IMG/VR virus record: IMGVR_UViG_3300025684_000015
Coordinates: 1 to 64,000 of that record
Length of the DNA stretch: 64,000 nucleotides
Reading direction: 5' to 3' (one strand)
Source of the DNA: a virus
Positions 13,096 to 58,567 of the stretch are shown here, piece by piece. The notes below the pieces were generated by a model. It ran no database searches, was not told the DNA's origin, and saw only the letters and a program-made list of their open reading frames with translations. The first letter of the stretch is position 1. Every line of letters starts with the position of its first letter. The translations under genes were made by a program, and so were the position numbers.

Positions 13096-13103
13096 TTAGT
13101 TTC

Positions 13104-41688: not shown

Positions 41689-42644
41689 TATGCTGCTCCT
41701 TTAATATCTGCAACTAGGCCATTCTCAAAGAATGACTCATATTGCGGATAAACTGATTTAAGAGCTGTAGAAAATCTTGCTCTTTCTTTTTCTGACATAA
41801 CAACAGTATCAATGCCAAAAGCTTTTGCTTCTGTTTGAACTCTAACATTATCTGCCAGTGAATCTTCTCTTTCGATTTTAGCTGCTTCTAATGAAGCTTC
41901 TTTCCATGCTTGTTGATCATTAGCAGACATAGAATCCCATAGTTGTTTATTCATTACAATTGAAGTAAGGAATAATGAGTGTGAAGTGTCATTAATATAT
42001 TTAGCTACTTCATGCTGCTGTCTAGCAAAGAATCGAGCATATGTGGTAGTACCAGCATCAATACGACCATCTTTCATTGCTTGATTAATTTCATCAACTA
42101 ACATTTGAACTGGTTTAGCTTGCACTGCTTCAAACATAGATTGAGATACTGGGCTTTTGGAGCAACCAATAGAAAGATCATAGAAATCTTCAAGTCTTTC
42201 TAGAGTCTTTGTTGAAGGAATAATCCTATATCCACCTGAATATGTAAAAGCTAAACCTTTTAAATTAGATTTTTTCTCGAGCCATGAGAACAGATTTTGA
42301 CCAATTTTTCCATCGAGTACTTTTTCGGCATGGCCATGATCTTCGAATAAGAATGGAAGCCCTAGGGAAAACATGTTCTTTTCAAACTTCCCTAGAGTTT
42401 CTACATATGTTGTAGCAATATCAATATTGCCAGAGTTAACTAAACTAACAACTTTTTCTCTATCACTAGAGTGAATAGATAAGTTACTACCAGTTTCTTT
42501 ATTCCATTCGGATAGACTTAAAACCCGTAGATCATATCTACCATCAGTGCTATCTTTGATTTTTGCACTAAATACTTTTGCTGCGCGCAAAAATACATTG
42601 AATGGTTCGTGTGCAATAACCCACGTAAGTTGTTTAGTTTCCAT
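41688..42644 (-). CDS. dctP: TRAP-type substrate-binding protein (DctP-like), no signal peptide
   Basis: LPFLFED..HAEKVLDG, GGYR, AMKDGRIDA; begins at the mature fold. Confidence 0.85.
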   Translation of the reverse strand: METKQLTWVIAHEPFNVFLRAAKVFSAKIKDSTDGRYDLRVLSLSEWNKETGSNLSIHSSDREKVVSLVNSGNIDIATTYVETLGKFEKNMFSLGLPFLFEDHGHAEKVLDGKIGQNLFSWLEKKSNLKGLAFTYSGGYRIIPSTKTLERLEDFYDLSIGCSKSPVSQSMFEAVQAKPVQMLVDEINQAMKDGRIDAGTTTYARFFARQQHEVAKYINDTSHSLFLTSIVMNKQLWDSMSANDQQAWKEASLEAAKIEREDSLADNVRVQTEAKAFGIDTVVMSEKERARFSTALKSVYPQYESFFENGLVADIKGAA

Positions 42645-42650
42645 TTTAGT

Positions 42651-43604
42651 TTACTCTCCGAAAATTTCTCTGTATCCTGGCTCTAATAGTTTTCTATTAG
42701 CAATATACGCATTCTTTAATCCTTGCGAATTAAGTGCTGCTTTATCTATATTTATCATTCTTTTTTCGCGTTCTGCCTTAGCTTTTTCACTTTGTACGGC
42801 TTTTGCTAAATTAATTTCATACCATTTTACAATTTCTGGATCAGTACCTTTTGCTAAAAGGGCACCGACTGTAGACATTTGTAAAATTCCTGGATATGTT
42901 TCATTAACAGCTTCAGTATTAGGCAATGCTGGTAGTCTTCCATTAGACATTACCGCAATATACTTAATATCACCACTATTATAGAACGCAACTGTTGGTG
43001 GCATACCACCTACCCAAATATCAACTTCACCAGCGGCTACGTCTTTAATAGCTTCTGCTGATTTTCTATATTTTACAAAGTTGACTTTATCTTTTGAGAT
43101 ACCTTCAGCTTCTAAAATAAGATTTGTTGCAACAATCTGATTAGGGAATGTTGTTGTGATATTTAGTGGTTTATTTGAAGTGCGAATCCATTCAACCAAT
43201 GCGGCTAATGAATTAATAGGTGTGTCGTGCTTTACGGCGATCACAATACTAGAAGTGATCAAGCCAGAAGTAAATTCGAAATCATTCGCCCAATCGTAAT
43301 CAACCAACTCTGGGTTGGTGACTTCACCCATTACATGACTAATGCTTGTAGTCAAAAGCACGTGATGGCCATCTGCTGGGTAAGATTTAAGAAAATGTTT
43401 TGTTCCGATAATACCAGCGGCACCTGGTTTAAACTCATAGATTACTTCAACACCAAGTGCTTCTTCAATTGACATAAAGCCAGTTGCATGAAGAGATGTT
43501 GGAGAAGAAGGAACCGTAACGGTAATAGGACCTGTTGGTTCCCATGCATACACAGTCGTGTTTGCTAGCACAGCAATAACGAAAGTCATAATATATTTTA
43601 ACAT
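42651..43604 (-). CDS. tctC: tripartite tricarboxylate transporter substrate-binding protein (TctC/Bug)
   Basis: Signal peptide; PTGPITVTVP, KPGAAGIIG, PADGH, VKYRK..EAIKDV..GEVD, LPNT. Confidence 0.85.
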   Translation of the reverse strand: MLKYIMTFVIAVLANTTVYAWEPTGPITVTVPSSPTSLHATGFMSIEEALGVEVIYEFKPGAAGIIGTKHFLKSYPADGHHVLLTTSISHVMGEVTNPELVDYDWANDFEFTSGLITSSIVIAVKHDTPINSLAALVEWIRTSNKPLNITTTFPNQIVATNLILEAEGISKDKVNFVKYRKSAEAIKDVAAGEVDIWVGGMPPTVAFYNSGDIKYIAVMSNGRLPALPNTEAVNETYPGILQMSTVGALLAKGTDPEIVKWYEINLAKAVQSEKAKAEREKRMINIDKAALNSQGLKNAYIANRKLLEPGYREIFGE

Positions 43605-43649
43605 AATATTTTTTTTTCCTTTTAATGGGATTTATTTGATTTATACGAT

Positions 43650-43657
43650 TATTTATA
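43650..43657 (-). promoter_or_regulatory. T4-type late promoter upstream of tctC-dctP
   Basis: TATAAATA in the intergenic region. Confidence 0.7.
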
Positions 43658-43660
43658 TTT

Positions 43661-44386
43661 TTACTTATTTGTCATTGAGCACAATTTAAGAACATTCTCC
43701 CAAGTCTTAGGAACGTTAACAACCAAATGAATTGATCCATCTTCCCAAGAATGAGTTCTATGCGTTTTCATTGTATCAACGTAATAAGCCCGACCAGGAA
43801 TAATATCCTGTTTTTGGCCAGATTGACTCCATTCAAAAGAATCACTATCACATGCTTTCGATAAGAAAGCTACGATACGAATAGTTTTTCTAGTAATAAG
43901 TGGATAGTCTTTATGCGGTGGGAAATACCCACCCGCATTTACTTTAACTAAGAAAGTTCTACCAAGTTTGTCAAATGGTTCCAACAACTCATGGAGAGAA
44001 GTTAGAGCATGATATACGTCTGTCTTATGGTTGAAGTCTTGGTCAAGTAAAAACTCGTTTCCAGTCTTAATTCTAGATTGTGGGATAGAAAGATTTTCCG
44101 AATGAGAACTTCCTTCTAATCCAACTAGAACAAGACCTTCTCTATTATTTGGTGCCCATGCTTTTTTCAAGTATGGTTCCCAATCGTTATCAAATAACGA
44201 TAATTCTTTATTTAATTGATCTAAATTAATTCTTGGTTTTAATAGTTCGAATTCACCCATTGCTTGCAATTGTAGCTCGCACATAAGATCTTCTTGCGTG
44301 GGTGTAAACTTTTCTGGCTTACGAGAATACTTCTCAAACCAGTTACCAGTATTTTCACCATCACCTTTATTTTTGATTTCTGTCAT
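43661..44386 (-). CDS. aspartyl/asparaginyl beta-hydroxylase-like 2OG oxygenase
   Basis: GRT..GGYFPPHKD...GRAYYVDTMKTH...HLVVN. Confidence 0.75.
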   Translation of the reverse strand: MTEIKNKGDGENTGNWFEKYSRKPEKFTPTQEDLMCELQLQAMGEFELLKPRINLDQLNKELSLFDNDWEPYLKKAWAPNNREGLVLVGLEGSSHSENLSIPQSRIKTGNEFLLDQDFNHKTDVYHALTSLHELLEPFDKLGRTFLVKVNAGGYFPPHKDYPLITRKTIRIVAFLSKACDSDSFEWSQSGQKQDIIPGRAYYVDTMKTHRTHSWEDGSIHLVVNVPKTWENVLKLCSMTNK

Positions 44387-44418
44387 CGTAATCCCAATTC
44401 ATCGCAAATAAAATTGAT

Positions 44419-45840
44419 CTAAACATTCTTTTTCATCCTGTACATATTAGCTGATATGATTGCCAATATACATAACCATATTCCTATTGCTATATTACTA
44501 TGTATAAAGATAGAAAAGTCCCCTTGAGAAATACTAAGAGATCTTCTAAAATATTCTTCAAGCATTGGACCTAGAATTAATCCTAAAATAAATGGGACAA
44601 CATTAATATCTAATTTCATAAACAGATAACCGAGAGCAATAAAAGCACAAAGAATAATTAAATCATTTGAGTTATTATTTACTCCATACGTTCCAATAAA
44701 ACAAACAGAAATAATAATAGGATATAATATTGTGTATGGTATTTTAATTAAGCTTACCCATATTTTAATCAACGGATAATTTAAAATAAGAAGAATAATA
44801 TTTCCAAAGAAAATACTGTAAACTAAAGACCAAAATAAATCAGGATGGTTTTGAATTACTAATGGACCAGGAACAATTCCAAATACAATCATGGCACCAA
44901 GAATCAAAGTCATTGCCATATTTTCTGGTAATCCAAGACTTAATAAAGGAATAAGACTGCCTTGAGCAGCAGCATTATTTGCAGCTTCTGGAGCAGCAAC
45001 TCCTTCTATAACTCCGGTGCCTAAATTTTTATTAATATTTTTTTCAACAGTATAAGCAGCATATGTTGCTCCTGTTAGTCCACCACCTGGAATAATACCA
45101 AGAAACCCACCAATAAGAGTTCCTCTCAATGCTGCGGGAACAAATTGTTTTAAATCTTCTTTTGTTGGAAGAATTGCTAAATTTTTAGTCTGTACAATAG
45201 ACATAGTATTTAATGATAAATTTCGAAATACTTCGGCGAATGCAACCATTCCAATTGCAGCTGCAACAAAACTTATTCCATCATATAGATCATCAATATT
45301 GAATACAAATCTTTCAAGTCCACTATTTAAATCAACACCAACAGTTCCTGTCAATATACCAACCATAACTGCCGCTAATCCAGTTAAAAGATTATCACTT
45401 AGAATAGATGTAACACCAACAAATGCTAAACATAATAATGCAGTATATTCAGCTGGACCAAATTTAAAAGCAAGGTCAGCTAATGGTGGAGAAATAATTG
45501 CCATAGCAATTACCATAATAATACCAGCAATAAAGGAAGAAATAGCTGATACCATAATGGCTTTTCCAGCTAATCCTTTCTTTGCTAATTTATGACCATC
45601 AATACAAGTCATAATAGCACTATTTTCGCCTGGTGTATTTAATAGAATCGCTGTAGTAGATCCACCATATTGAGATCCATAATAGATTCCAGCTAACATA
45701 ATAATACCAGAAATAGGATCCATTCCAAAAGTAATTGGCAATAATAATGCAATTGTTGTTGATGGACCGAGGCCAGGTAATACACCAACGGCAGTGCCAG
45801 CAAGACATCCAATTAATAAAAATATTAATTGCTCTACCAT
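44419..45840 (-). CDS. tctA: tripartite tricarboxylate transporter large subunit
   Basis: GVLPGLG, GSQYGGS, NTPG, FGPAEY, GIIPGGG, PEAANNA, LGLP, GLILGP. Confidence 0.95.
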   Translation of the reverse strand: MVEQLIFLLIGCLAGTAVGVLPGLGPSTTIALLLPITFGMDPISGIIMLAGIYYGSQYGGSTTAILLNTPGENSAIMTCIDGHKLAKKGLAGKAIMVSAISSFIAGIIMVIAMAIISPPLADLAFKFGPAEYTALLCLAFVGVTSILSDNLLTGLAAVMVGILTGTVGVDLNSGLERFVFNIDDLYDGISFVAAAIGMVAFAEVFRNLSLNTMSIVQTKNLAILPTKEDLKQFVPAALRGTLIGGFLGIIPGGGLTGATYAAYTVEKNINKNLGTGVIEGVAAPEAANNAAAQGSLIPLLSLGLPENMAMTLILGAMIVFGIVPGPLVIQNHPDLFWSLVYSIFFGNIILLILNYPLIKIWVSLIKIPYTILYPIIISVCFIGTYGVNNNSNDLIILCAFIALGYLFMKLDINVVPFILGLILGPMLEEYFRRSLSISQGDFSIFIHSNIAIGIWLCILAIISANMYRMKKNV

Positions 45841-46250
45841 AATGGTAATGCTTTAAGTACTGTGAGTTTTAATATAATTGCTAAGACCGAAGAAACGGCT
45901 GTTGAGATAATACATGATTTCCATGTAAAGTCTTTATGAAGAGTTGAAACTAACGGAACTAAAACCACAATAGAAGCTAAAATACCAAAATACTTAAACG
46001 CAAGAATTCCTAAAAATACAGCACCCAGCATTTTAATAAGTACAAATATTTCTAAATGTAATACTTCATTATCATTTTGTGATCGAAATGCGTATACTGT
46101 TGAAATAATAATTAAAATAATAGAAATAATAAATGGGTACATTCCTGGACCCATATTTGCAAGTGTTCCTAATTGCATATTAGATGACATAATTAAAAAT
46201 ATAAATCCAATCATAAAAAGTAATATAGAAGTATATTGTTTTTTAGTCAT
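45834..46250 (-). CDS. tctB: tripartite tricarboxylate transporter small subunit
   Basis: About 4 TM helices, MGPGMYP motif, C-terminal LP; adjacent to tctA. Confidence 0.85.
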   Translation of the reverse strand: MTKKQYTSILLFMIGFIFLIMSSNMQLGTLANMGPGMYPFIISIILIIISTVYAFRSQNDNEVLHLEIFVLIKMLGAVFLGILAFKYFGILASIVVLVPLVSTLHKDFTWKSCIISTAVSSVLAIILKLTVLKALPLW

Positions 46251-47269
46251 TATTCATATCCACAAAAATCATTATCTTCAACATAGTATTGTTTAATAAA
46301 CTCTGTATCAAATGGTTTATAAAAGGATTGTAAAGAATTTGATTCAGATACAATCATATCAGGTTTATTTGTAAAGAATAATTTACCCATAGACTGCCAT
46401 TTTCTTTTGTAAATATGATAGTCTTTATCCTTTGTATAATTATATATTAGATCTTTATAGAGTGATTTATCTGGAGATTTATTTAAGATTGACCATCTTT
46501 GAATATCGTGAGAAGAGTAAAATGTGTCAAATTCTTTATGATAACCCAATCTAGGCTTATATTTTTCTTTAGCGTTTAACCATCTAAAATTGAAATTAAA
46601 CCACCAACTAAAATCTTCAATAGTATCAATTGGCCGTGGAGAACTTTTACCAGTTTTTAACATAGCATTGATAAATGCTTCAGCCGCAATTTTATCAAAT
46701 CCCAACTCAGCACAAACATTATATAGATTAGTTTTTGTTGCTGGTTTAGTAGTCCAAGATTTATCAATTCGTGAAAGCATCATGCCACTAATAATTTGAT
46801 CTGCATGTTCTGCTTGAATAGTAATACCATCATTATCTTCAGATAAATGTTTTTCAATTGATAAAAGTTTAAAGTTTGGTAAAATATAAGTGTAATAAAA
46901 TTTAGGATTCTCTTTTATAGAGTCACGATTCATTACAATTGTTATTTGATCTAAATTAATATTAGACTTAAGAAATGATATAACCATTAAGGTTGAATCA
47001 ATTCCGCCACTCCATTGTAAATATAAATGTTTACCTGTATCAACTAATTCTAAACAACGACTTTGTAATACATCTTCAAATGTTCCAACAGCTTTAACTG
47101 TAGGAATTTTATATTCTTCTGGCATATATTGCTTTAATGGTGTTACTAATGTTTCTGTTCTATCTGACATCCAACTAAAACGCATAATTTTGCGCATAGC
47201 TCTTTCGTATAATACCATATCAGGAGTATCTAGAGCACGTAATAATATTGTTGAAGCATGTAGAATCAA
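46250..47269 (-). CDS. asparagine synthetase-like PP-loop ATP pyrophosphatase (no glutaminase domain)
   Basis: WSGGIDST, SIKENP, AEHADQI, DFSWWFNF. Confidence 0.75.
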   Translation of the reverse strand: MILHASTILLRALDTPDMVLYERAMRKIMRFSWMSDRTETLVTPLKQYMPEEYKIPTVKAVGTFEDVLQSRCLELVDTGKHLYLQWSGGIDSTLMVISFLKSNINLDQITIVMNRDSIKENPKFYYTYILPNFKLLSIEKHLSEDNDGITIQAEHADQIISGMMLSRIDKSWTTKPATKTNLYNVCAELGFDKIAAEAFINAMLKTGKSSPRPIDTIEDFSWWFNFNFRWLNAKEKYKPRLGYHKEFDTFYSSHDIQRWSILNKSPDKSLYKDLIYNYTKDKDYHIYKRKWQSMGKLFFTNKPDMIVSESNSLQSFYKPFDTEFIKQYYVEDNDFCGYE

Positions 47270-47874
47270 TTGACGTATACCATATTATCAATTAGACGTT
47301 TTAGTTTTGGTAATTCTTGCTGACTACTAATGTCATTTACTTTTTGAATTAATTTATAAACTGAACCATCAATTTTAGCTTTACCATAAAAATAAGAATC
47401 ATTTTCCATATCAATAAATTTTTTAGCCAATTCAAAAGATAATCCTGCTTGACTTGCAAAACATTCTATCATTTTATCATTATATAAAATATAGCGATCA
47501 GTATATCTACTCATAAATTTTTCGGCCATATCATCTATTAAAATAAGACATTCTTTTTTTATATTTAATATCTTTTTTGTCTTTTTAAATCTTATTGTTT
47601 TATGAGATACTAGTAAATCTACTTTTTGAATTTGATAGAATTCATCGATATCACTAGGTTTGGCGACAGAACCTTCACCAGGTCTTACCATTCCTACGTT
47701 TTGTTGTAGTAAAATTTGATCTATATTTGGATTAAAAGTTGATGTTGTTCGTACTCGCATTACACTTGTATTTAATGCGTACTCACAAAGTTTATTTGCT
47801 ATATCATAATTAGAAGCTTCGCAGTAGATCAGGTGTTCTTCCTGATCTACCACAAAGATATATGTATTAATCAT
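47266..47874 (-). CDS. hypothetical partner of the PP-loop enzyme
   Basis: Coupled directly upstream of the AsnB-like gene. Confidence 0.65.
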   Translation of the reverse strand: MINTYIFVVDQEEHLIYCEASNYDIANKLCEYALNTSVMRVRTTSTFNPNIDQILLQQNVGMVRPGEGSVAKPSDIDEFYQIQKVDLLVSHKTIRFKKTKKILNIKKECLILIDDMAEKFMSRYTDRYILYNDKMIECFASQAGLSFELAKKFIDMENDSYFYGKAKIDGSVYKLIQKVNDISSQQELPKLKRLIDNMVYVN

Positions 47875-48665
47875 TTTTTGCGAATTCTAAAAGTAACTAC
47901 TTTGCGATCAGCTTCTGCAAAAATTGAAGCTGGTCTAGTTGTGTGTAATCTACGAGAATCATAACAAATAATACGACCTGGCTTAGGACTTACTACTTTA
48001 CAAGTATCGCCCCAGTCAATTGGAAAACCTCGTTGTTGGCCACCTTTTTGATATCTTTGGTCGTCACCAGTTTCTGTATGATTGCTGGTGTAGAACATAT
48101 TATCCGCAAACCATGTTGGATACCATACAGGGTTAGCAACATACATACATGTATATGTACGGTCATTCGATTCATCGGGTTGATCTCGATGAATTCCATG
48201 AGTATGCTTATAGTGTTCATTTGGCTGAGCCGCGGCGTACACTCTCCAACCCTGATCCATATTGGGATCTAATGTTGGTGGTGCAGTGTATTTATCTTTT
48301 ATATACTCATCTGGAGAATTTTCTGCTACTGTGCCTTCGGGCTTACCAGCAATTTCAAATTCACCATCAAATTGCATATTGATACATTGCCACAATTTAT
48401 AAATTGGATCATGAGCTTTTAGACTTTCTTCGTCAGAAGCAAAATGAGCTCTTGGCATGAATAAATGGCGGGGCTCTTCCAGCCGCTTGGGGTAATCATT
48501 GGCTTTCCATTTACCAGGAACATATTCATGAATTTCATGAAAGTTGCTAGTTTTCTGCCTTTTCCAAGCGGCTGTCCAAGTTTGTTCTAATAGGTATTCC
48601 CATACTGAATGTCTAAGATCAGCTGGAACAGCGTCATCGACAACTCTTACTTCATAATCAATCAT
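47871..48665 (-). CDS. 2OG-Fe(II) oxygenase (prolyl-hydroxylase-like)
   Basis: IHRD, PKPGRIICYD..RLH, R. Confidence 0.8.
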   Translation of the reverse strand: MIDYEVRVVDDAVPADLRHSVWEYLLEQTWTAAWKRQKTSNFHEIHEYVPGKWKANDYPKRLEEPRHLFMPRAHFASDEESLKAHDPIYKLWQCINMQFDGEFEIAGKPEGTVAENSPDEYIKDKYTAPPTLDPNMDQGWRVYAAAQPNEHYKHTHGIHRDQPDESNDRTYTCMYVANPVWYPTWFADNMFYTSNHTETGDDQRYQKGGQQRGFPIDWGDTCKVVSPKPGRIICYDSRRLHTTRPASIFAEADRKVVTFRIRKK

Positions 48666-48693
48666 TCAAATCACATCCTATTTTTATTTTAGC

Positions 48694-49635
48694 TTAAGAC
48701 TTTTGAATTTTCTCAATGATATTATCACTGAAAACATTCATGTACTTTGTGTACAGATGAGCAGTAGCTGCTTTGAACTTAGCAGTTTCTGATTCAGCCA
48801 TCTTAACAATTTTAATGCCTTGGGTCTTACATTGATCTACGATACCATCGATAGAAGCAACTGATTCACGACGCTCTAAACGAGCAGCATTCAATGCAGC
48901 GTCTTTCAACACGGCTTGAGTCTTTTCATCTAGACCAGCGTAGAATTCTTTACCAACAATAATTGAGGTAAGGAAAAGTGAATGTGCAGTGTCATTAACT
49001 GTACCAAATGCTTCACCCTGCTTAAGAGGAAGAATACGTACATATGTAGACTCACCACCATCAATAACACCATTTGCATGTGCTTCATTCATTTCTTCAA
49101 GTTCAACTGAATCAACAACATTTGCGCCTAGAGCTTTAAATGTGTCTACAGCAACAGGAGACTTAGAAGTACGAATGCTCATACCTTCAAAAGCAGCGAC
49201 GGTATCTAATTCTTTTTCAGACGGGATAACACGGTATCCACCTGAATATGTAAAGGCCAAACCTTGTACAGGTGATTTTGCCTTAAGTCCATCCAATAGA
49301 GACTGGCCGATAGAGCCTTCTAGAACTTTATCTGCATGGTCATGATCGCGGAACAAGAAAGGCATGTCAAGTGCATACATATCTTTATTCCAATCACCAA
49401 GCCATGTAGTATACATCTGCGATGCTTCTACAACGCCATCTTCCATTAACTGGAGAAGATCTTGTTTAGTGACTTTTTCGCCACCATTATACTTATTTGA
49501 GTACTCAGTCAAAGAAAGAATTTCGATGTCTAAAGCACCATTTGTTTGCTCAAGTACTTGCGCTTTGAATCTTTCTGCAGCGCGCAGAAACAAATCAATA
49601 GGCTCATGAGCAATAACCCAACGAATGGTTTTCAT
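48694..49635 (-). CDS. dctP: TRAP-type substrate-binding protein (DctP-like), no signal peptide
   Basis: MPFLFRD..HADKVLEG, GGYR, GMSIRT, FKALGA, GVIDGGE; AGGAG SD before the ATG. Confidence 0.88.
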   Translation of the reverse strand: MKTIRWVIAHEPIDLFLRAAERFKAQVLEQTNGALDIEILSLTEYSNKYNGGEKVTKQDLLQLMEDGVVEASQMYTTWLGDWNKDMYALDMPFLFRDHDHADKVLEGSIGQSLLDGLKAKSPVQGLAFTYSGGYRVIPSEKELDTVAAFEGMSIRTSKSPVAVDTFKALGANVVDSVELEEMNEAHANGVIDGGESTYVRILPLKQGEAFGTVNDTAHSLFLTSIIVGKEFYAGLDEKTQAVLKDAALNAARLERRESVASIDGIVDQCKTQGIKIVKMAESETAKFKAATAHLYTKYMNVFSDNIIEKIQKS

Positions 49636-49687
49636 TGTTAAACTCCTAATGTTAACACGTGTTTACGTTTTGGTTTGCAACCAACTT

Positions 49688-49695
49688 TATTTATA
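49688..49695 (-). promoter_or_regulatory. T4-type late promoter upstream of dctP
   Basis: TATAAATA in the intergenic region. Confidence 0.7.
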
Positions 49696-49699
49696 TGTT

Positions 49700-50629
49700 T
49701 TATTTCTTAATATTGTCGTTATGCTTAATTAAAAGCTTTTCAACGATCGCAATATTTTCTAAATAGAATGCACCAATATCTTTACCATCAAATACCGGTG
49801 AATTCATGTCTGATAGTCCAAATACTTTATCTTTACCAAGATTTTTTGTAGCAGCATTTAATACATATCCAAGCTTCAATCTTTTTAGTGTTGGCATTTC
49901 TGAAGAAGCAACAGTAATATTAAATACTTGTGGAGCAGATACTCCCTGTTCAGCTAATGTTGCTACTTCTGGAAGAAGTGGATGGCGGGAAGTACACGAA
50001 GCCGCGGCGGCTTGAATATTTGGATTTTTAGTTTTCATTTGGATATAGTTTTTAGCTTTTTCTACTACCATATTGACTGATCCATCTCCTGCCATTAACA
50101 CCAATCCTTCATAATTAGATTTAAAAATTACGTAATTGATTTCGGTTTTAGCTGCTTCACCAATTTGGAGAGATGTCAAATGCGTAGCATTACCAATACC
50201 TACACCACCAACGGTCATGACATCTTTACCAGCATTTCGCATAGCCTCAATTGAATCTCCTAGATTCGAAATTACAATCCAGCATGCAGATCCTAAAGCA
50301 TGAATAGGAACATATTTTTCACGATCTAATTTACCAGATCTAGTATGTTCTACATATTTTGGTGCGATAATAGATAATCTATTTTGTGGAGATGCATCCA
50401 TTTGTTTTACAGCAATAATTTGCTGACCACCTGGTTTATTTTCAAGATGAAATTGAAATTGATCTTGAATCTTATTAGCTTCTTCGACAATTGCTAAATA
50501 CGCGGGTGTTCCGCCATGAGACGCTGAATACGGACTTTGAATATAGATGTCTTCTTTTGCAAAAGCGTGTGTAGACCCTAGTGTAAACGCAACTGTCGCG
50601 CTAACCATTAAAGTTTTTAAGTTTTTCAT
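49700..50629 (-). CDS. tctC: TctC/Bug substrate-binding protein
   Basis: Signal peptide ending AFA; PYSASHGG, ENKPGG, GVGIGNATHL, LPEVATLAEQG. Confidence 0.8.
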   Translation of the reverse strand: MKNLKTLMVSATVAFTLGSTHAFAKEDIYIQSPYSASHGGTPAYLAIVEEANKIQDQFQFHLENKPGGQQIIAVKQMDASPQNRLSIIAPKYVEHTRSGKLDREKYVPIHALGSACWIVISNLGDSIEAMRNAGKDVMTVGGVGIGNATHLTSLQIGEAAKTEINYVIFKSNYEGLVLMAGDGSVNMVVEKAKNYIQMKTKNPNIQAAAASCTSRHPLLPEVATLAEQGVSAPQVFNITVASSEMPTLKRLKLGYVLNAATKNLGKDKVFGLSDMNSPVFDGKDIGAFYLENIAIVEKLLIKHNDNIKK

Positions 50630-51866
50630 AAAAATACTCTTCTATTCCTTCGTTGTTAAAATATTTCATTTGATAATTTTCATCTAAACCAAACATATTA
50701 TCTAGTTCATCGTTTATCGCAATTCGATGCCGATTCACAATGATTTGTTTAGATGGTATTTTCATTTTGTACCAATAGTACCAATCATTGGCATCTAAAC
50801 TATGTATATAGTCTTTAGCTGCCATTTTATAACGACCCTGTGTTGTGCCTAAGATTTTTTGGCCGTTATTATTATTTACCATAGACCATAATTGAAAGTC
50901 TACAGCGTTAAACCAATTAATTTGTTTTTCGTATATTTTACTACGATCAACACCTGTTGATTGAATGCTTCCAGCCCTTAGCGCACAATGCATATATTTT
51001 GGATTAAAGATAATCCACCAAAAGAAATCATGTAAGGTAGTTACTTTGCACTTTGCTGTTTCAATATTTCTAACCATTTTGTTATAATACATTTCGCCAA
51101 ATGCTTTATCAAGAGATGATTTTTCGGTATTAGAATATTTAAAATATCTACCATCTAAACAAAGATTAAAATACTTAATAATTGCTTGTTTATATTCGCT
51201 ATAATGAACTTCTGGGTTGTCAATATTATCTTTTAACGCATATGCTTCTTTTGTATAATCAAAATAATAAGGAATTGACGGATATAATTTAGTACCTAAT
51301 TCAGTACCAAATAGAGCATCACCTTGATCACCTACAATAACTGTATAGTTTTGTTCCACAACAGTACGTCTCATATCAAATTCTTTACTGTTATGAATCT
51401 TAAGTTTATCTTTAATAAATCTATTATAGAAGAATTCATTCTCAATAATTGAGTCAAAACTCATTGAAATTGTAATATTATCTAATTGTTTATCTGTAAG
51501 ATTTTTAATTAATGCCGCAACAATTGCTGTTGAATCTATACCACCAGAATATAGAATAAGAAATTGTTCATCTGTATTATCAATTCTTTTTGCGATATTT
51601 AAAGCTGTTTCATCACTAATTTGCGCAAATGATTTATTAAAGTCTTTTGATAAATCTGGCATATCATAACCAGGCGGTAATACCAAATCATCACCCCATG
51701 GAGTATCCCACTCTCCATCTCTTGGAGAATATGAATTATACCCAAATGCTAATGAGATATTATAAAAAAACTTAGCTCCATCGTTTTGAAAGTTATATTT
51801 TTTCATAACTTTACGATGGTAAAATTTAAAAGGTGTATAATGTATTAGAAAAAAACGGTTTTGCAT
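50601..51866 (-). CDS. asparagine synthetase-like PP-loop ATP pyrophosphatase (paralog)
   Basis: YSGGIDST, SIIENE, GDQGDALFG, DFFWWIIF. Confidence 0.75.
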   Translation of the reverse strand: MQNRFFLIHYTPFKFYHRKVMKKYNFQNDGAKFFYNISLAFGYNSYSPRDGEWDTPWGDDLVLPPGYDMPDLSKDFNKSFAQISDETALNIAKRIDNTDEQFLILYSGGIDSTAIVAALIKNLTDKQLDNITISMSFDSIIENEFFYNRFIKDKLKIHNSKEFDMRRTVVEQNYTVIVGDQGDALFGTELGTKLYPSIPYYFDYTKEAYALKDNIDNPEVHYSEYKQAIIKYFNLCLDGRYFKYSNTEKSSLDKAFGEMYYNKMVRNIETAKCKVTTLHDFFWWIIFNPKYMHCALRAGSIQSTGVDRSKIYEKQINWFNAVDFQLWSMVNNNNGQKILGTTQGRYKMAAKDYIHSLDANDWYYWYKMKIPSKQIIVNRHRIAINDELDNMFGLDENYQMKYFNNEGIEEYFYEKLKNFNG

Positions 51867-52461
51867 ATCGACTCAAATTCTCATAAAATTTTCTTTTTCG
51901 TAGGTTGCTTGTTTTAGATTTACTAAAGGCAACCATGATGTTGTCATATAATTCGTCAACATCTTTTGAATAATAAATTAGCTCGTAAATTGCTTCTTTA
52001 AATCCATTCTCAAAGTCTTTGTGACCACCATCAGATGCATGATAACCCATATCTTTATATGTTTCAATTCCCTTTGAATCTACAAAAGAAAAAATAGATT
52101 CGTACGATGATGGAAGTTCCATTTCAGTTTTTATAGTAGATTTTATAATTACAAACGTCATGCGAATATAATCTAAATGAGACTCAAAGATGTCTTGTGG
52201 AGTGTTCTGCTGAGGACCCAAATCTACATAAGAATCTTGTGGTTTAATTACTAGATATGGATATGGAGAAGACTGGCGGTATCCCTTTGGGTTACCTAGT
52301 GTCCAATTAGTACATACGCTATTATCAATTTCAGGCAATGTGACTGGAATTATGTTACACAATATTTTAGAGGTAAGTACTGTGGCTGTCTCGTATAGAG
52401 AGTGTACATCTTGATCGATAATTAAAAATCGTTCAATAGTATTTGAATATAATCCATGCAT
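51826..52461 (-). CDS. hypothetical partner of the PP-loop enzyme
   Basis: Same position relative to the AsnB-like gene as 47266..47874. Confidence 0.65.
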   Translation of the reverse strand: MHGLYSNTIERFLIIDQDVHSLYETATVLTSKILCNIIPVTLPEIDNSVCTNWTLGNPKGYRQSSPYPYLVIKPQDSYVDLGPQQNTPQDIFESHLDYIRMTFVIIKSTIKTEMELPSSYESIFSFVDSKGIETYKDMGYHASDGGHKDFENGFKEAIYELIYYSKDVDELYDNIMVAFSKSKTSNLRKRKFYENLSRYAKPFFSNTLYTF

Positions 52462-52488
52462 AATATAATATAACCTAAACGTGATTAA

Positions 52489-52944
52489 TCACATCTCTTT
52501 TATCACACCAATGTGATTATCTTGTTCTGTGCCAGAAATGGTTTGGAATCCATTCTGTAATGCCCAATCTAATTTACTTATTTTCATCCAACCAAACATT
52601 TTTAGATAATTTGACCAATGTTTTTCATAAGCTTCTTCTAAAAGAAGAGCGCCTAATCCCTGATGTCGCCATTCTTTACGAATATTTATAGTACGAAAAC
52701 GAATGGTAGATATATCCCACTCATATAATTGAGTAACTCCTATAATCCCATCAAAGTCTACTTCAGGATGTCGATCATATAGCCCATAACATTTGGATAT
52801 AGGATTATCTATACTAGAACGAAATGGCCCTAATTGGCTAACCAGTTGTCTATAGTTTTTATTGGGATCATTGAAGTGATCTACTTCTTTCCAATATTCT
52901 ACAATTTGATCAAAGGAGATCTCTTCAACTTCAATTCCATCCAT
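52489..52944 (-). CDS. GNAT-family acetyltransferase
   Basis: INIRKEWRHQGLGALLL acetyl-CoA motif, NGF. Confidence 0.8.
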   Translation of the reverse strand: MDGIEVEEISFDQIVEYWKEVDHFNDPNKNYRQLVSQLGPFRSSIDNPISKCYGLYDRHPEVDFDGIIGVTQLYEWDISTIRFRTINIRKEWRHQGLGALLLEEAYEKHWSNYLKMFGWMKISKLDWALQNGFQTISGTEQDNHIGVIKEM

Positions 52945-53289
52945 TTACGTTTGAGTACCTTTATTTGCTAAAACGTTAGTACTAAATTTATCACCAGATG
53001 TAATTACACATGTGGTACCACGAGTTTTATTTACTACTATAAATGTCCATGTTAATGTATCATAATTAATCCACAATGAATGAAAAAGACCTTCACCAGT
53101 CGATGTTTCACTAGGTGCTACAAATATAATTTCTTCATCATATTTATTTTTTAAATTTTCTACAATATCATCTGTTTTTCCACAAAATATTGGTAGTTGC
53201 ATTGTGCTCACCCGAGGAGTAGCATCATTAGCAAAAACTAAAGTAGAAGCACAAACGAGTAAAGTAAACATTATTACATATCTTTTCAT
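52945..53289 (-). CDS. small secreted protein
   Basis: Signal peptide ending VFA; Cys pair. Confidence 0.7.
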   Translation of the reverse strand: MKRYVIMFTLLVCASTLVFANDATPRVSTMQLPIFCGKTDDIVENLKNKYDEEIIFVAPSETSTGEGLFHSLWINYDTLTWTFIVVNKTRGTTCVITSGDKFSTNVLANKGTQT

Positions 53290-53309: not shown

Positions 53310-53554
53310 AAACGAATGGTAGGTTATTCTGTTACTAGGAAACCTACCGAAACCCTATCCGACTATGCTGCTAGAGCGTAATCTTGAGGAGCAAAGTTAT
53401 CGTTTGCATTTACTTTTGTGATTCTCCGCTGCCTTCACGTATCTGTCGATCCTATTTCGCCCCCATCATAAGCACACTCAGTAAATGTGTTTATGGTGGA
53501 GGCGGTGGGTACTGCCCCCACGTCCAGCCTACATCCATCCAGTTTCACTGAATC
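53310..53554 (-). ncRNA. ssrA: circularly permuted (two-piece) tmRNA; tag ANDNFAPQDYALAA
   Basis: Acceptor piece ...GGGGGCAGTACCCACCGCCTCCACCA ends at 53494; coding piece starts GGGGGCGAAATAGGATCGAC at 53464; G3:U70 pair; tag ORF 53407-53363; outer ends approximate. Confidence 0.93.
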
Positions 53555-53559
53555 ATTTT

Positions 53560-53567
53560 TATTTATA
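53560..53567 (-). promoter_or_regulatory. T4-type late promoter for tmRNA
   Basis: TATAAATA immediately upstream of the acceptor piece. Confidence 0.75.
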
Positions 53568-53571
53568 CTAC

Positions 53572-53700
53572 TTACTTACAAAGATCTTCATACTTCGTGG
53601 AGTGTACTCTATGTTTTGACATGTCTCTACCTAAATATCCTGGCGTTTTTTCTTTACTATTAAACATTTTAGATAATAACTTAACAAGTTTTTTGAGCAT
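53572..53700 (-). CDS. 42-aa peptide (not in track)
   Basis: MLKKLVKLLSKMFNSKEKTPGYLGRDMSKHRVHSTKYEDLCK; GGAGAG SD; promoter upstream. Confidence 0.5.
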   Translation of the reverse strand: MLKKLVKLLSKMFNSKEKTPGYLGRDMSKHRVHSTKYEDLCK

Positions 53701-53811: not shown

Positions 53812-53819
53812 TATAAATA
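53812..53819 (+). promoter_or_regulatory. T4-type late promoter for the + strand operon
   Basis: TATAAATA upstream of ATG 53865. Confidence 0.75.
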
Positions 53820-53864
53820 AGATTGAAATACAAACTTTTATTATCTATTTTATGAGGATTTAGA

Positions 53865-54419
53865 ATGTTTAAGAAGCTAGCAATCTGTGCTAGCTTTATT
53901 ATGTATATATCATTACCGGCAATGGCACAAGAACAAGACGTCATTGTTACTGACTCGACAAGTAATAGCACAGTGACAACGAACGGTCAAATGACCACAA
54001 CGGTAAAACAACCACCTCCGTCCGCAATCTCACCACAATTTAGTAGTGGTAGCAATAGTGATCTATGTACTATTGGCGTAGCGGGTGCTGTCCAAACGCA
54101 AATTCTTGGTATCTCTGCAGGTACCACTTACACCGAAAAAAATTGTATCAGATTAAAAAATGCTAAGACTTTATACGATATGGGTATGAAGGTCGCAGCA
54201 GTGTCTGTCATGTGTCAAGATTCAAAGATCTTTGATGCTATGAATCATGCTGGTACACCCTGTCCATATAATGGAACAATTGGTGATGCCGCGCGTCTTG
54301 GTTGGGAAACCCACGTTGAGACTACGAGAAAAGAATTAGAAGATTCGGATAATATCAATGTTAAAGAAGCTGCTACTGTTGGTGGTATGGGTCTTTTGGC
54401 CTTCTTACTGCTACTCTGA
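53865..54419 (+). CDS. exported Cys-containing protein with C-terminal membrane anchor
   Basis: Signal ending AMA; four Cys in the mature part; GLLAFLLLL tail. Confidence 0.75.
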   Translation: MFKKLAICASFIMYISLPAMAQEQDVIVTDSTSNSTVTTNGQMTTTVKQPPPSAISPQFSSGSNSDLCTIGVAGAVQTQILGISAGTTYTEKNCIRLKNAKTLYDMGMKVAAVSVMCQDSKIFDAMNHAGTPCPYNGTIGDAARLGWETHVETTRKELEDSDNINVKEAATVGGMGLLAFLLLL

Positions 54420-55263
54420 AAGTATTGCCCCGTATCCAGGTCGAACTGGTAATGCCGCTAGTAATGGGCATCAATGGGTAATGAAGAATATTCTGCCTGA
54501 CGTCGCAGGGTTGGATATTAATGCAGTTATTTACAATTATACGATTCAAAAGAAAACTGAAGATGCTGCCACTGTGCATATTCAAAATGAAAACGCTAGT
54601 GGGTCTGGATATATTTTTAGAGAGACTGACGAATGGAGACCAGGATCATTGGGAGGAACTATAATCAATAAAGTCGTTCAAGTGAATCCTGGAATTCCAA
54701 GAGCCGCATGGGGAGATGGATCTATTGCTGTTGAGGGTGATGGTTCAGTTACTGATGCAAATGTAAGTTATAATTACAGAGTTAATCCTTGTTTTGATCC
54801 ACAGTTTGATCCCAATTGTCCAGGATATGTTGAACCTAAACTGGACATTGAAATACCTACAGTAGATCTAACTACATTATATGACGCAACTAAAGATGAA
54901 AACGTAGATTTAAGTAATGAAGAATTAGTTCTTATACAAGAAAATGACGAGCAGCTAGAAAAAGAAAAAGAAAAAGAAAAGGAAGAAGCTGAAGAAAAAG
55001 TTAGAAAGTACAGATTAGAAAAAGCTTTATCTGCTACTGATGCTTCAGCCTTATTCGCAGAAAATCAATTAATTCAACAAATGAATGAAATTGCTAATTT
55101 AGCTGTAATTGCTCAAGGATACAATAAAACAATATCAGGCGGCGCATATAAAGAAACTATTGAATTAGTTGATTCTAAATTGCCTGATAACGGAACAGGT
55201 TTAAGAAATAACTTAGCTCAACAAATATTGCATAATGAATTAGTGGATATGCAATACAAGTAA
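54358..55263 (+). CDS. exported beta-domain plus coiled-coil protein
   Basis: Hydrophobic N-terminus; PCFDPQFDPNCPGY hinge; charged coiled coil. Confidence 0.75.
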   Translation: MLKKLLLLVVWVFWPSYCYSESIAPYPGRTGNAASNGHQWVMKNILPDVAGLDINAVIYNYTIQKKTEDAATVHIQNENASGSGYIFRETDEWRPGSLGGTIINKVVQVNPGIPRAAWGDGSIAVEGDGSVTDANVSYNYRVNPCFDPQFDPNCPGYVEPKLDIEIPTVDLTTLYDATKDENVDLSNEELVLIQENDEQLEKEKEKEKEEAEEKVRKYRLEKALSATDASALFAENQLIQQMNEIANLAVIAQGYNKTISGGAYKETIELVDSKLPDNGTGLRNNLAQQILHNELVDMQYK

Positions 55264-55297
55264 TATTATGTCACTCTAAACTTATAGGAGAAAACAC

Positions 55298-55828
55298 ATG
55301 AGATATGTGTTCACTAAACAAAAAGTTATAGCATTAAGTGTAGGCATGGGCATATTAGGGTCTGGCTTAACTTATGCTAAGGCAGAACAAGTGCCAATTA
55401 ATGGTATTGTAACATCTAGATGCATTATTCAAACTGACACTGCTGGTGTGTTTGGAAACCCTAATGCGTATACACTAACAACTGCACCAGCTGATGGTGG
55501 ATTACCACCTATTATTCGTTTTGATGTAACTCTAGCTGATGCTTATTATGCAGTAATTACTCCACCAACTGAATTTTCATCTAGTCCAGCATTACCAGAT
55601 CAAGTAACGTTTACTGGTAATACAACAGTTGAGGCAGTATCTGATGCAACAGGCATGGGTTCATATGAATCAAATAAAATTCAAACTGGTATGACTGACA
55701 AATATGATCTCACCGCAACTGGAAGTACATGGTTTAAAACAGCATCTGTCGCAACGATGGGTGGTAGTAAATCATTTCCAGGTGGAAACTACACAGCACT
55801 AGTAACTGCTGAATGTATTGCTCAGTAA
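55298..55828 (+). CDS. exported fimbrial/pilin-like subunit
   Basis: Signal ending AKA; VPINGIVTSRC start strand and GGNYTALVTAEC end strand, as in chaperone-usher/Csu subunits. Confidence 0.6.
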   Translation: MRYVFTKQKVIALSVGMGILGSGLTYAKAEQVPINGIVTSRCIIQTDTAGVFGNPNAYTLTTAPADGGLPPIIRFDVTLADAYYAVITPPTEFSSSPALPDQVTFTGNTTVEAVSDATGMGSYESNKIQTGMTDKYDLTATGSTWFKTASVATMGGSKSFPGGNYTALVTAECIAQ

Positions 55829-56246
55829 TAGGATAGTGTTTGTTATGTTAAAAAATATTATATTACCACTAGCAGTATTAGCATTATATGCTGGTACTGC
55901 TAGTGCGCATGAAATGATTCCAACATATCCAAAGCTAAGTACCGTAGCTATAGATGGTGTGTATAAAACCACTATGAAGATGTTTAATAAGCGGGAAGAT
56001 GTTGAATTTTATGAAATCGGCGTATTCGATAAAGACTTTAAAGAAATACCATTTGTGTCAACTTATAAGATATTAAAAATAAGATATCTAAGTCATGTTA
56101 CTTTTGATGTGTATATTCGAAAAGCTGATTACGAAGCTGCAACATACATTTGTTCTAAAAGTAAATTAAGAAAAGCTAGTGATATAAGAACTGCTATATC
56201 TTCTAGAATATGTTCAAAGTTTCAGCATCAAAGACAAAACAAATAG
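55818..56246 (+). CDS. exported pilus-chaperone-like Ig protein
   Basis: Signal ending ASA; HEMIPT...MKMFNKRED.EFYEIGVFD; Cys pair. Confidence 0.5.
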   Translation: MLSNRIVFVMLKNIILPLAVLALYAGTASAHEMIPTYPKLSTVAIDGVYKTTMKMFNKREDVEFYEIGVFDKDFKEIPFVSTYKILKIRYLSHVTFDVYIRKADYEAATYICSKSKLRKASDIRTAISSRICSKFQHQRQNK

Positions 56247-56672
56247 GTGAATTTTATGAAGTATTTAGCGATAATAATAACCAGTCTTTTATTTAGTATA
56301 GAAGCCATGGCAGAAAATAGTTCACTCAATTTGCAAATGCCATCACCTGGAACTCAATATGGCCAAGATAGTATTCGATCAGGAGAAATTGATTGTAAAA
56401 ATGCTATTGGTGGATCAACCAATTTTGAGTTTGGAGTAACAGGAATTATTGACAATTACAATAGTCCTTTCTCTAATGACAATGGTGCATCTACTAAAGA
56501 TATTGGCGTATATGCTAGAATTACAATCCCTTTAGATGGACCTAAAGAACGAATCAATTGTAATTCTTTATATGAATTAGAATTACGAAAAAAACGAATA
56601 GAAGTTTTAAAGCTCCAAGAAGAATTAGAAGCTTTAAAGAAATTAAACGCTCAAAGCGGCTTTGAAAATTAA
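56247..56672 (+). CDS. exported protein with amphipathic beta-hairpin and coiled coil
   Basis: Signal ending AMA; C...NFEFGVTG...IGVYARITIPL...C; C-terminal heptads. Confidence 0.7.
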   Translation: MNFMKYLAIIITSLLFSIEAMAENSSLNLQMPSPGTQYGQDSIRSGEIDCKNAIGGSTNFEFGVTGIIDNYNSPFSNDNGASTKDIGVYARITIPLDGPKERINCNSLYELELRKKRIEVLKLQEELEALKKLNAQSGFEN

Positions 56673-56762
56673 AATGTACTTTATTGAAGTTTTAAGATGG
56701 GCTATAGCCGTTCTAAAACAGAAAAGAATCAAACGAGCATTAAAGCGCTCTAGGAGAAAATA

Positions 56763-57197
56763 ATGTACGAATATAGAGTTAAAGTCAACAAAGTAGTAGA
56801 CGGTGATACCGTTGATGTTGATATTGAATTGGGATTTGGTGTTGTGCTATCTGATGAACGTGTAAGAATTATGGGTATTGATACTCCTGAAAGTCGCACT
56901 CGTGATTTAACAGAAAAAGCATTCGGTCTTGCAGCTAAGAAAAGATTGCAAGAACTTCTTGGTGATGTTGCAGTTTTAAGAACACAAATTGCTAAAAATG
57001 GTGAAGATATGAAAGGTAAGTTTGGCCGTGTCCTTGGTGACTTTGTTGCTGAAGATGGTCGAATGATTACCGAAATTATGATAGAAGAAGGACATTGCGT
57101 TCCTTACTTTGGTGGAAGTAAAGAAGAAACTCAGGCTGCACACATGGTTAATCGTGAAAGATTGATTGCCGAAGGTGTAGTTACCTTAGACGATTAA
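56763..57197 (+). CDS. thermonuclease (SNase)-family nuclease
   Basis: VVDGDT, RVRIMGIDTPE, GKFGRVLG. Confidence 0.88.
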   Translation: MYEYRVKVNKVVDGDTVDVDIELGFGVVLSDERVRIMGIDTPESRTRDLTEKAFGLAAKKRLQELLGDVAVLRTQIAKNGEDMKGKFGRVLGDFVAEDGRMITEIMIEEGHCVPYFGGSKEETQAAHMVNRERLIAEGVVTLDD

Positions 57198-57209
57198 GGA
57201 GAGATTCAT

Positions 57210-57422
57210 ATGTATGATTTATATTCTAAAAAAGAAAAAATATATTTCCTTATTTGCGGAATTTTAATGGCTTTAGGATTATCAGTAACAACTTACTTTT
57301 ATTTTAAATCTAGAGTTATTTCAATGCAATGGGAACAATCTTTTACAACTCCAAAAGAATACTGGTCAAAAGTTCCAAAATGGGAATGGAAACCAGTATT
57401 TAAAGAAGACAAATTAGGTTAG
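57210..57422 (+). CDS. small membrane protein
   Basis: GGAG SD; one TM. Confidence 0.6.
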   Translation: MYDLYSKKEKIYFLICGILMALGLSVTTYFYFKSRVISMQWEQSFTTPKEYWSKVPKWEWKPVFKEDKLG

Positions 57423-57432
57423 GAGAATTCAA

Positions 57433-58020
57433 ATGCTTACAACAATAATAGATCAATTAGTTAATTTCTGGCAATTTACAATTGTTGGTATACTCGTACT
57501 TATCGGGTTTATTGCTAATCTATTTGGTGTTGATAATGATAAAGAATTGGTTAGCTTTTCATACGAAGAAATGCCTAACATGCGACCTATTAAAATAGAA
57601 ACTGCGGGCAAAGGTTTCTGGGGAGCTATATGGATGTGGTTTGTGGGTGTGCGTCAATGGGAAATTGCTGAAGATTTTAAATATAAATTGCAAAATGAAG
57701 AATTTGTAATTCCAGCAGGATTTACTTTTGATGGCGCATCAGTACCTAAATTTTTAGCTACTTGGTTATCACCAACTGGGGTATTGTTAATGGGTGGTCT
57801 TATTCATGACTACGCATACAAATATCAAAGACTACTTAAAGTTGATGGTACTACAACGCATCTTATGAATCAAAGACAAGCTGATATGATCTTTAGAGAC
57901 ATTAATATTGAACAAAATGGATTCCATTTACTTAACTACTTAGCCTATTGGGCTTTACGTATTGGTGGTTTTGTTGCATGGAATGGTCATAGAAAAAGAA
58001 ACGTGCAAATAGGAGAATAA
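57433..58020 (+). CDS. DUF1353-family protein with N-terminal TM
   Basis: IPAGFTFDGASVP, LIHDYAY, QADMIF, ALRIGG. Confidence 0.8.
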   Translation: MLTTIIDQLVNFWQFTIVGILVLIGFIANLFGVDNDKELVSFSYEEMPNMRPIKIETAGKGFWGAIWMWFVGVRQWEIAEDFKYKLQNEEFVIPAGFTFDGASVPKFLATWLSPTGVLLMGGLIHDYAYKYQRLLKVDGTTTHLMNQRQADMIFRDINIEQNGFHLLNYLAYWALRIGGFVAWNGHRKRNVQIGE

Positions 58021-58021
58021 C

Positions 58022-58567
58022 ATGGCAGAATTCGAATTTGCTGGAACCACCTTTCGTGGTGGAAAAATGTTTATGGTTCTTACTGCTCTATCAACTCTAG
58101 GCGGTGCTGCTTGGGGTGGATTCGAATTCTATAATGACTATAGGAATATGAAAGAAATTGTTGAAAACATCGATGTGGATGCAATTAAAGCTGAAAATAC
58201 TTTAGTTATTCAAAAGATGGATGAACAAATGATTCGTATTGAAGAAGCTATAGAATATACACGAGACATTAAATCTGGTTTAAGAGATGATATTCTTTCG
58301 GTTGAAAAGCAAGTAGATCGTATGGAAGACAAAATTAGATCTTCTGAACAAGAAACTCGTGAACTTATAGTAAATGCAGAAGAACGATTTGAGGCAAAAA
58401 GAGACGCTCTACAAAACGATTATGACCAAAAGGCCAGTCGTCTTGCAGAGCGAAATGATAATACTATAAAAGACCTTGAGACAAAGGTAGCTCGAGATCT
58501 GAAGGACCTTGAAGATCAGTTGACAAAGAAGTTGCAGCGGTCACTGGACAATCCACTTGCGAACTAA
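58022..58567 (+). CDS. membrane-anchored coiled-coil protein
   Basis: N-terminal TM, long heptad repeat, ends LDNPLAN. Confidence 0.7.
   Translation: MAEFEFAGTTFRGGKMFMVLTALSTLGGAAWGGFEFYNDYRNMKEIVENIDVDAIKAENTLVIQKMDEQMIRIEEAIEYTRDIKSGLRDDILSVEKQVDRMEDKIRSSEQETRELIVNAEERFEAKRDALQNDYDQKASRLAERNDNTIKDLETKVARDLKDLEDQLTKKLQRSLDNPLAN

Follow-up and report, generated by a model that had tools for sequence, protein, structure and literature searches.

The first 64 kb of the 97.9-kb IMG/VR virus record IMGVR_UViG_3300025684_000015 (completeness estimate 57%), hereafter the window, carry a plus-strand gene cassette encoding five proteins predicted to be exported, p184, p301, p176, p142 and p141, followed by a sixth conserved member, p181. 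Its carrier is a marine T4-like phage, and T4-type replication genes (UvsX, a gp41-like helicase, ribonucleotide reductase) and three tRNA genes were found in the same window. We tentatively favour the view that this is a late-expressed cassette through which the phage assembles a protein complex or polymer in the infected cell's envelope, the cassette consisting of a core triad (p176, p142 and p141) and an accessory trio (p184, p301 and p181), which we consider quite possible rather than probable. Its best reading in terms of mechanism is a minimal, usher-less and previously undescribed chaperone-subunit assembly.

Organisation, expression signals and conservation

The gene order p184-p301-p176-p142-p141, then p181, is unchanged in all 93 related IMG/VR loci and is held down to about 32-55% identity. 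Related loci were gathered by scanning viral contigs with p176 (14 loci) and with a p141 alignment, the latter retrieving 486 IMG/VR viral loci with a p141 relative, 80 of which were kept. An earlier note on this DNA, made without database searches, had proposed the five exported proteins as one system and had named the conserved co-occurrence of their genes as a check. The constant order in 93 of 93 loci agrees with that proposal, but the five genes belong to two separable sub-modules, as described below, and p181 has to be counted in as well.

In the window, p181 (58022-58567, +) is separated from p141 by genes for an SNase-like endonuclease (56763-57197, +), a 70-aa membrane protein (57210-57422, +) and a DUF1353 protein (57433-58020, +), an assignment based on Pfam and PHROG matches. 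Because these three genes occur in a minority of the 93 loci only, with varying positions and order, while p181 always follows p141, the conserved unit comprises six genes. The inserts of the p141-p181 interval are absent or placed elsewhere in relatives, as though this spot tolerates gene insertions. Searches against Pfam, NCBIfam and PDB-sequence profiles yielded no significant match for any of the five families, the PHROG families matched by the cassette proteins have no assigned function, and no paper describing the cassette was found in our literature searches, which were limited in extent. Few unannotated gene blocks are as common in marine T4-like phages as this cassette.

The five genes run against the grain of the genome, as the earlier note had remarked and as GC skew and the layout of open reading frames (ORFs) concordantly indicate. 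Nearly all genes of the window are on the minus strand, GC skew is positive in the 54-58 kb interval only, and the plus-strand block consists of nine ORFs (53865-58567) in a region that is otherwise minus strand. A T4-type late promoter motif, TATAAATA, occupies 53812-53819 (+), with the first ATG 46 nt further on; no other plus-strand copy exists in the window, where the motif is not enriched overall (9 seen versus 10.9 expected). Of 82 related loci, 54 have it no further than 160 nt before the first gene (40 of 61 when each distinct upstream sequence is counted once), and none of the 83-93 loci has it in the 100 nt preceding any of the other five cassette genes. Conservation before the first gene only is the pattern predicted by a single late promoter driving one operon. 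Successive genes of the five-gene run are separated by -62, 34, 16 and 0 nt.

Hydrophobic N-terminal segments are the rule among non-redundant homologues (37/38, 51/51, 43/43, 47/50 and 47/48 for the five families in cassette order) and are accompanied by AxA-type sites in every family. The number of invariant cysteines is always even (4, 2, 2, 2 and 2 from p184 to p141). Such N-terminal segments and even cysteine numbers are marks of Sec-exported, periplasmically oxidised proteins, which the five families are predicted to be on sequence grounds. Together with the motif kept before the first gene only, these marks uphold the late-promoter operon of exported proteins put forward in the earlier note.

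Structure of the core triad and of the accessory proteins

p176, p142 and p141 from one related locus (L032), in which the three genes share one frame, were modelled with AlphaFold2 (AF2) as one read-through chain, the two TAA stops being read as Gly and the input alignment having 146 rows, some of them paired rows taken from other loci. Fold searches were carried out with this fusion model, and the p176 part was searched only within the fusion.

p142 (55845-56246, +) comprises 133 aa from ATG with a predicted signal peptide followed by a single PapD-like/MSP-type Ig domain. The ORF can be extended to a TTG (55818-56246, 142 aa); since all homologues begin at ATG, a start at ATG 55845 rather than at TTG 55818 is most likely. 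The domain was modelled with a predicted local distance difference test (pLDDT) score of 92-97. Foldseek matched the fusion model to PapD, FaeE, DraB and CsuC at probability 1.00 (E ~1e-3), and in both VIA lists the matches to p142 are almost only chaperone-usher chaperone domain 1 and MSP domains, with whole-domain coverage. As modelled, a seven-strand Ig-like sandwich extends over the whole domain and places p142 within the PapD-like/MSP structural superfamily, at the level of fold only; the alignment to chaperone-usher chaperone domain 1 is in keeping with the one-domain Ig chaperone suspected in the earlier note. The invariant Cys103 and Cys123 bridge the last two strands, and FGL chaperones carry a disulfide at the matching place. 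The mature protein is about 112 aa long and chaperone domain 2 is absent; a search for two-domain relatives returned only a frameshifted gene call, which is an artefact. Membership of p142 in the PapD_N family by sequence is ruled out (PF00345, E<=10; hhalign, 1.5%). The mature N-terminus reads HEMTPTYP (55908-55931), and the His following the predicted AxA site is invariant in the phage lineage and resembles that of a histidine brace. Gln occupies this position in the bacterial homologues and Leu in the Vibrio-phage homologue. The His is thus specific to one lineage, and the histidine-brace idea was dropped for that reason.

The candidate subunit is p176 (55298-55828, +; 176 aa), which consists of a predicted signal peptide, an N-terminal strand VPINGIVTSRC, a beta-sandwich of about 140 residues and the C-terminal sequence GGNYTALVTAEC, with Cys42 and Cys173 as its invariant cysteines. 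The family is large: clustering at 90% identity of the 8000 candidates that were scored left at least 3680 clusters. In the L032 homologue the sandwich reaches pLDDT values of 90-98, and the stretch before the first Cys is nearly invariant, yet scores about 45. Equivalents of this first strand in distant relatives read VPFTGTVSTAC and VTFSGNLNETC, and in an hhalign local match it aligns with the first strands of the Escherichia coli fimbrial subunits FimG (ITVNGKVVAKPC) and ElfA (VTFNGKVIAPAC) and also with FimA (probability 86%, E 5e-6, 37 columns only). The C-terminal pattern GxYxAxVxxxC recalls the last strands of fimbrial and SCPU proteins, and the sole SCPU link is an Atlas feature neighbour of p176, a cluster with 15% SCPU members (score 0.96). 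No Pfam SCPU or Fimbrial match was obtained for p176 and its distant relatives at E<=0.1. The 50 best VIA rows obtained with the fusion model, in lists dominated by the p142 domain, contain no pilin, and the VIA matches of the p176 part are generic beta-sandwiches only. SCPU membership of p176 by sequence is ruled out (PF05229, E<=10; hhalign, 0.9%). The earlier note had considered p176 a chaperone-usher/Csu-type subunit; the confident beta-sandwich and the fimbrial-type first strand speak for this part of the proposal, but neither a pilin fold nor an SCPU match came with them. p176 as a pilin is thus plausible but unproven.

p141 (56247-56672, +; 141 aa) is predicted to have a signal peptide, a long amphipathic beta-hairpin flanked by Cys50 and Cys105, and a C-terminal coiled-coil helix. 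In the AF2 fusion model the hairpin strands have pLDDT values of 65-70 and the C-terminal helix exceeds 90; the disulfide-flanked amphipathic hairpin anticipated in the earlier note is therefore present in the model, together with the coiled coil. Homologues of p141 are gp079 of a T5-like Vibrio phage (phrog_37374) and proteins of Alphaproteobacteria.

Among the accessory proteins, p184 (53865-54419, +; 184 aa) is predicted to contain a signal peptide, a Ser/Thr-rich linker, a conserved four-Cys domain (about residues 47-158) and a hydrophobic tail after GG; it matches phrog_20531, has no Pfam or PDB-sequence relative, and gave unnamed viral clusters only in the Atlas search. Its C-terminus (54396-54419) shows a conserved GG and then a tail of hydrophobic residues only, followed by no basic ones, and is as much like a C-terminal sorting signal (GlyGly-CTERM-like) as like a plain membrane anchor. 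p301 (54358-55263, +; 301 aa) has a predicted signal peptide, a jelly-roll (residues 25-145, one Cys pair), an acidic linker, a 67-residue helix and a conserved C-terminal helix. Its head resembles lectin and carbohydrate-binding module (CBM) jelly-rolls, phage baseplate and tail-fibre domains and viral coat jelly-rolls, and a jelly-roll head on a long helix fits the tip/stalk shape guessed from its sequence. p181 combines an N-terminal transmembrane (TM) helix with a coiled coil ending in NPLAN, and has no invariant Cys.

Occurrence in other phages and bacteria, and relation to known systems

Homologues in other genomes reveal two separable sub-modules, p184 with the p301 C-terminus and p181 on the one hand and the triad p176-p142-p141 on the other. 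The core domain of p184 also occurs in the Pelagibacter podophages HTVC115P, 023P, 033P and 202P, in myophage Mosig and in Roseobacter, Ralstonia and Achromobacter phages. HTVC115P carries relatives of all three accessory parts, gp54 corresponding to p184, the gp53 C-terminus to that of p301, and gp49 to p181 (E 8e-24), as a block directly after the tail-fibre genes. In Mosig, the p184 homologue directly follows a holin of the gene transfer agent (GTA) type with three TM segments and precedes TM/coiled-coil proteins.

The triad was found on its own in the T5-like Vibrio phage pVp-1 (gp077, gp078 and gp079, i.e., phrog_25895, phrog_25455 and phrog_37374), about 600 bp upstream of holin and endolysin genes and downstream of two fibre-like proteins without signal peptides. 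These two proteins, gp075 and gp076 (835 and 861 aa, phrog_10818; 8715-13821 of locus L108), always precede the triad in Vibrio phages, and one of them has a collagen-like GxxGxxG stretch. The triad is also present in the Queuovirinae phage pVco-14, within the structural module.

In cells, two metagenome-assembled genomes (MAGs) of Alphaproteobacteria, G001 and G002, hold a five-gene version in the order subunit, p142-like, p141-like, subunit-like, subunit, so that a single p142-like and a single p141-like gene are accompanied by three p176 paralogues, and one of the two MAGs holds two such copies. A third genome, G148, contains the bare three-gene triad between a CorA-like gene and a dehydrogenase gene. 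None of the bacterial triad proteins has a Pfam or NCBIfam match. A p141 relative was detected in only 2 of 401 sampled Alphaproteobacteria, from which we conclude that the triad is rare in cells and common in phages. In MAG CAVWVG010000003.1 the five-gene version is directly downstream of CpaF-, TadB-, TadC- and TadD-like genes, and a TadG-like gene follows a few kb past it (locus L022, 3500-7700 and 13860 onwards). The copies of the second MAG and of G148 have no Tad neighbours.

Several features of the cassette recall chaperone-usher pili (FimC/FimA-G and PapD; the FGL systems Caf1M, SafB and DraB; the archaic Csu/SCPU system CsuC-CsuA/B), namely the chaperone-domain-1 fold of p142, the pilin size of p176, its hydrophobic-x-hydrophobic-x-G-x-hydrophobic...C first strand (as in FimG and FimA) and G-x-Y-x-A...V last strand, the several subunit paralogues of the bacterial versions, and the predicted Sec export and periplasmic disulfides. 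Unlike these pili, the cassette has no usher, p142 has no domain 2, no sequence or profile relation was found, the p176 disulfide joins the first and last strands, and the partner p141 has no pilus counterpart. The lack of an usher, a beta-barrel of about 800 aa, had been pointed out in the earlier note as well, and PF00577 found no match at E<=1 in the 97.9-kb record, which is 57% complete, or in the MAGs G001 and G002. Nor is there an extra large ORF between the cassette genes in the 93 loci, the largest cassette protein being p301. In G148, at a distance of 55 kb from the triad, there is a separate locus with SCPU, PapD_N and usher-like genes.

Curli (type VIII secretion) cassettes of unknown purpose are carried by pelagimyophages, by Melnitz and by HTVC023P-type podophages (PMC7029224, PMC9004378, PMC9599517). 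The cassette described here resembles them in being a multi-gene set for exported proteins in marine T4-like phages of SAR11/OM43-type hosts, located in a variable region near ssrA, absent from hosts and common to several phage families. It differs from them in the folds of its proteins. A search of the entire record up to E<=10 returned neither CsgG (PF03783) nor CsgF (PF10614), the six cassette proteins gave no Pfam match to curli families, and tblastn of p301, p176 and p142 against cultured pelagimyophages returned no match. Melnitz carries CsgF-CsgG-curlin-FecR-curlin-cyclase, and this differing gene set, together with the missing CsgG and CsgF, rules out a curli identity. Consequently, the cassette represents a different solution, possibly to the same problem as the curli cassettes.

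The cassette adjoins, in divergent orientation, a two-piece (permuted) tmRNA gene of alphaproteobacterial type (53318-53586, -; Rfam RF01849, 102.6 bits for a gathering score of 50). Over a 41-nt stretch, identity to the Methylophilales phage Melnitz ssrA gene reaches 95%. A near-consensus sigma-70-like promoter, TTTACA-17-TATAAT with TG (53801-53773, -), is directed at the tmRNA gene, as is a minus-strand copy of TATAAATA (53567-53560). Beyond it lies a gene for a small exported protein of 114 aa with a predicted signal peptide (52945-53289, -), which belongs to phrog_25396, a family without assigned function, and whose homologue is a neighbour of the cassette in a few of the related loci. 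A TctA transporter gene (44419-45840) is located inside the large minus-strand block just upstream (41395-52944).

Possible function and competing explanations

Export, oxidation, synteny and the p142 fold, on which a working model of the triad can be built, rest on the present analysis, whereas it is by inference that we arrive at strand complementation and polymerisation, at a role for p141 and at a site of assembly. Given the conserved signal peptides and paired cysteines, p176, p142 and p141 would cross the inner membrane by Sec and be oxidised in the periplasm. There, judging from its fold, p142 may complement p176 with a beta-strand and so retain it, in the way that pilins are held by PapD-type chaperones. 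The N-terminal strand of p176, which is conserved and unpacked in the model, would then mediate the transfer of this protein to an oligomer or fibre. More speculatively, p141 could oligomerise via its coiled coil into a membrane-proximal platform or pore replacing the usher. The accessory proteins, p184 as a membrane-tethered Cys-rich domain, p301 as a coiled-coil stalk topped by a jelly-roll head and p181 as an inner-membrane-anchored coiled coil, would together form a periplasmic scaffold that was joined to the triad in this phage lineage. The purpose may be to remodel or coat the envelope late in infection, either blocking adsorption (superinfection exclusion, receptor masking) or sticking cells together, and the cassette would in this respect be the functional counterpart of the curli cassettes of related pelagimyophages.

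The assembly of an envelope complex or polymer draws support from the autonomy of the triad, which stands alone between unrelated genes in G148 and recurs in pVp-1 and pVco-14, and from the bacterial p176 paralogues, which parallel the major and minor subunits of pilus operons. Sequence comparisons weigh against it. The hhalign fimbrial match is confined to the signal peptide and first strand of p176. Up to E<=10, PF05229 (SCPU) matched neither the record nor the bacterial triads, while it did detect the separate, genuine SCPU locus of G148, and hhalign of p176 against the genuine G148 SCPU protein gave a probability of 0.9%. The pairing of the p176 cysteines, first to last strand, is unlike that of classical pilins. 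Similarly, PF00345 (PapD_N) found no match at E<=10 for p142 or in the record, and hhalign of p142 against chaperones reached a probability of 1.5%. Moreover, parts of the cassette adjoin lysis or tail-fibre genes in other phages, which suits other roles too: these homologue positions fit receptor masking or superinfection exclusion as well as a role in lysis. The bolder claim, that the triad constitutes an unrecognised, minimal three-gene and usher-independent pathway for strand-complemented fibres in Gram-negative envelopes, found mainly in phages, by which certain highly abundant marine phages would coat infected cells with late fibres of their own to exclude competitors or capture neighbouring hosts, is in our judgement doubtful at present.

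A lysis-associated envelope complex, which would span the periplasm and disrupt the outer membrane or time lysis as a non-canonical spanin or lysis-regulation system, seems to us rather unlikely. In such a complex p181 would serve as an i-spanin-like anchor, p301 as the coiled coil and p141 as the outer partner. As in two-component spanins (Rz/Rz1; T4 PseT.3/PseT.2), expression is late and p181 has an N-terminal TM segment followed by a periplasmic coiled coil, and homologues are found near lysis genes, with p184 right after the holin in Mosig and the triad close upstream of holin and endolysin in pVp-1. Unlike these spanins, however, the cassette has no lipoprotein partner and no sequence match: no lipobox o-spanin candidate was found among the plus-strand ORFs of at least 20 aa between 53600 and 58900, embedded ones included. 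pVp-1 furthermore has a separately annotated Rz-like spanin, the bacterial chromosomal triads are not accompanied by lysis genes, and a PapD-like domain and triplicate subunit paralogues play no part in known lysis systems.

Alternatively, the cassette could encode a non-polymeric periplasmic exclusion or inhibitor complex, whose binders would mask a receptor or pilus or neutralise incoming injection machinery without any fibre being formed, by analogy with T5 Llp, Cor and T4 Sp/Imm. We hold this to be unlikely. Like those proteins, the cassette proteins are phage-encoded and predicted to be envelope-targeted, and in other phages their homologues come right after tail-fibre genes. That is the typical place of genes that block receptors, such as llp and cor, and it is also that of the p184 homologue of HTVC115P and of the triads of pVp-1 and pVco-14, which follow fibre-like proteins without signal peptides. 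The lectin/CBM-like head of p301, the matching of p176 to generic beta-sandwiches only, and the one bacterial copy beside Tad pilus genes point in the same direction, although Tad adjacency is seen in only 1 of 4 bacterial loci. Known exclusion proteins are nevertheless single and small rather than conserved three- to six-gene sets, and to our knowledge neither T5 Llp, Cor nor T4 Sp/Imm comes with a chaperone-like or pilin-like partner set. An exclusion complex would also leave the chaperone-type fold, the unpacked conserved N-terminal strand and the multiple paralogues unexplained.

It is very improbable that p142 is a copper-binding (histidine-brace) periplasmic protein and that the cassette handles metal rather than building a structure. 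The invariant mature N-terminal His right after the AxA site in the phage lineage and lower-rank fold matches to PmoB/AmoB (Foldseek) and to Cu-only superoxide dismutase and lytic polysaccharide monooxygenase (VIA) would suit such a function, but chaperone and MSP domains dominate the fold lists, the His gives way to Gln or Leu in the bacterial and Vibrio-phage proteins, and the partner genes would go unexplained. That the five proteins are virion components such as fibres or decoration proteins is hardly credible despite the late promoter, the p301 head resembling baseplate, tail-fibre and viral coat domains, and the pVco-14 triad inside the structural module, since tailed-phage virions assemble in the cytoplasm whereas all five families have conserved Sec-type segments and paired cysteines, and since the triad occurs in bacterial chromosomes outside a phage context.

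If the favoured assembly of a complex or polymer in the infected-cell envelope holds true and proceeds by usher-less strand complementation, a textbook assembly principle would be extended to a new minimal architecture. Lytic phages would then re-equip the envelope of a cell that they soon kill. The triad of the cultured Vibrio phage pVp-1 and the bare bacterial three-gene version are tractable systems in this regard. With the curli cassettes of sister phages taken into account, the remodelling of host envelopes by marine phages would become a theme that is general and open to testing.

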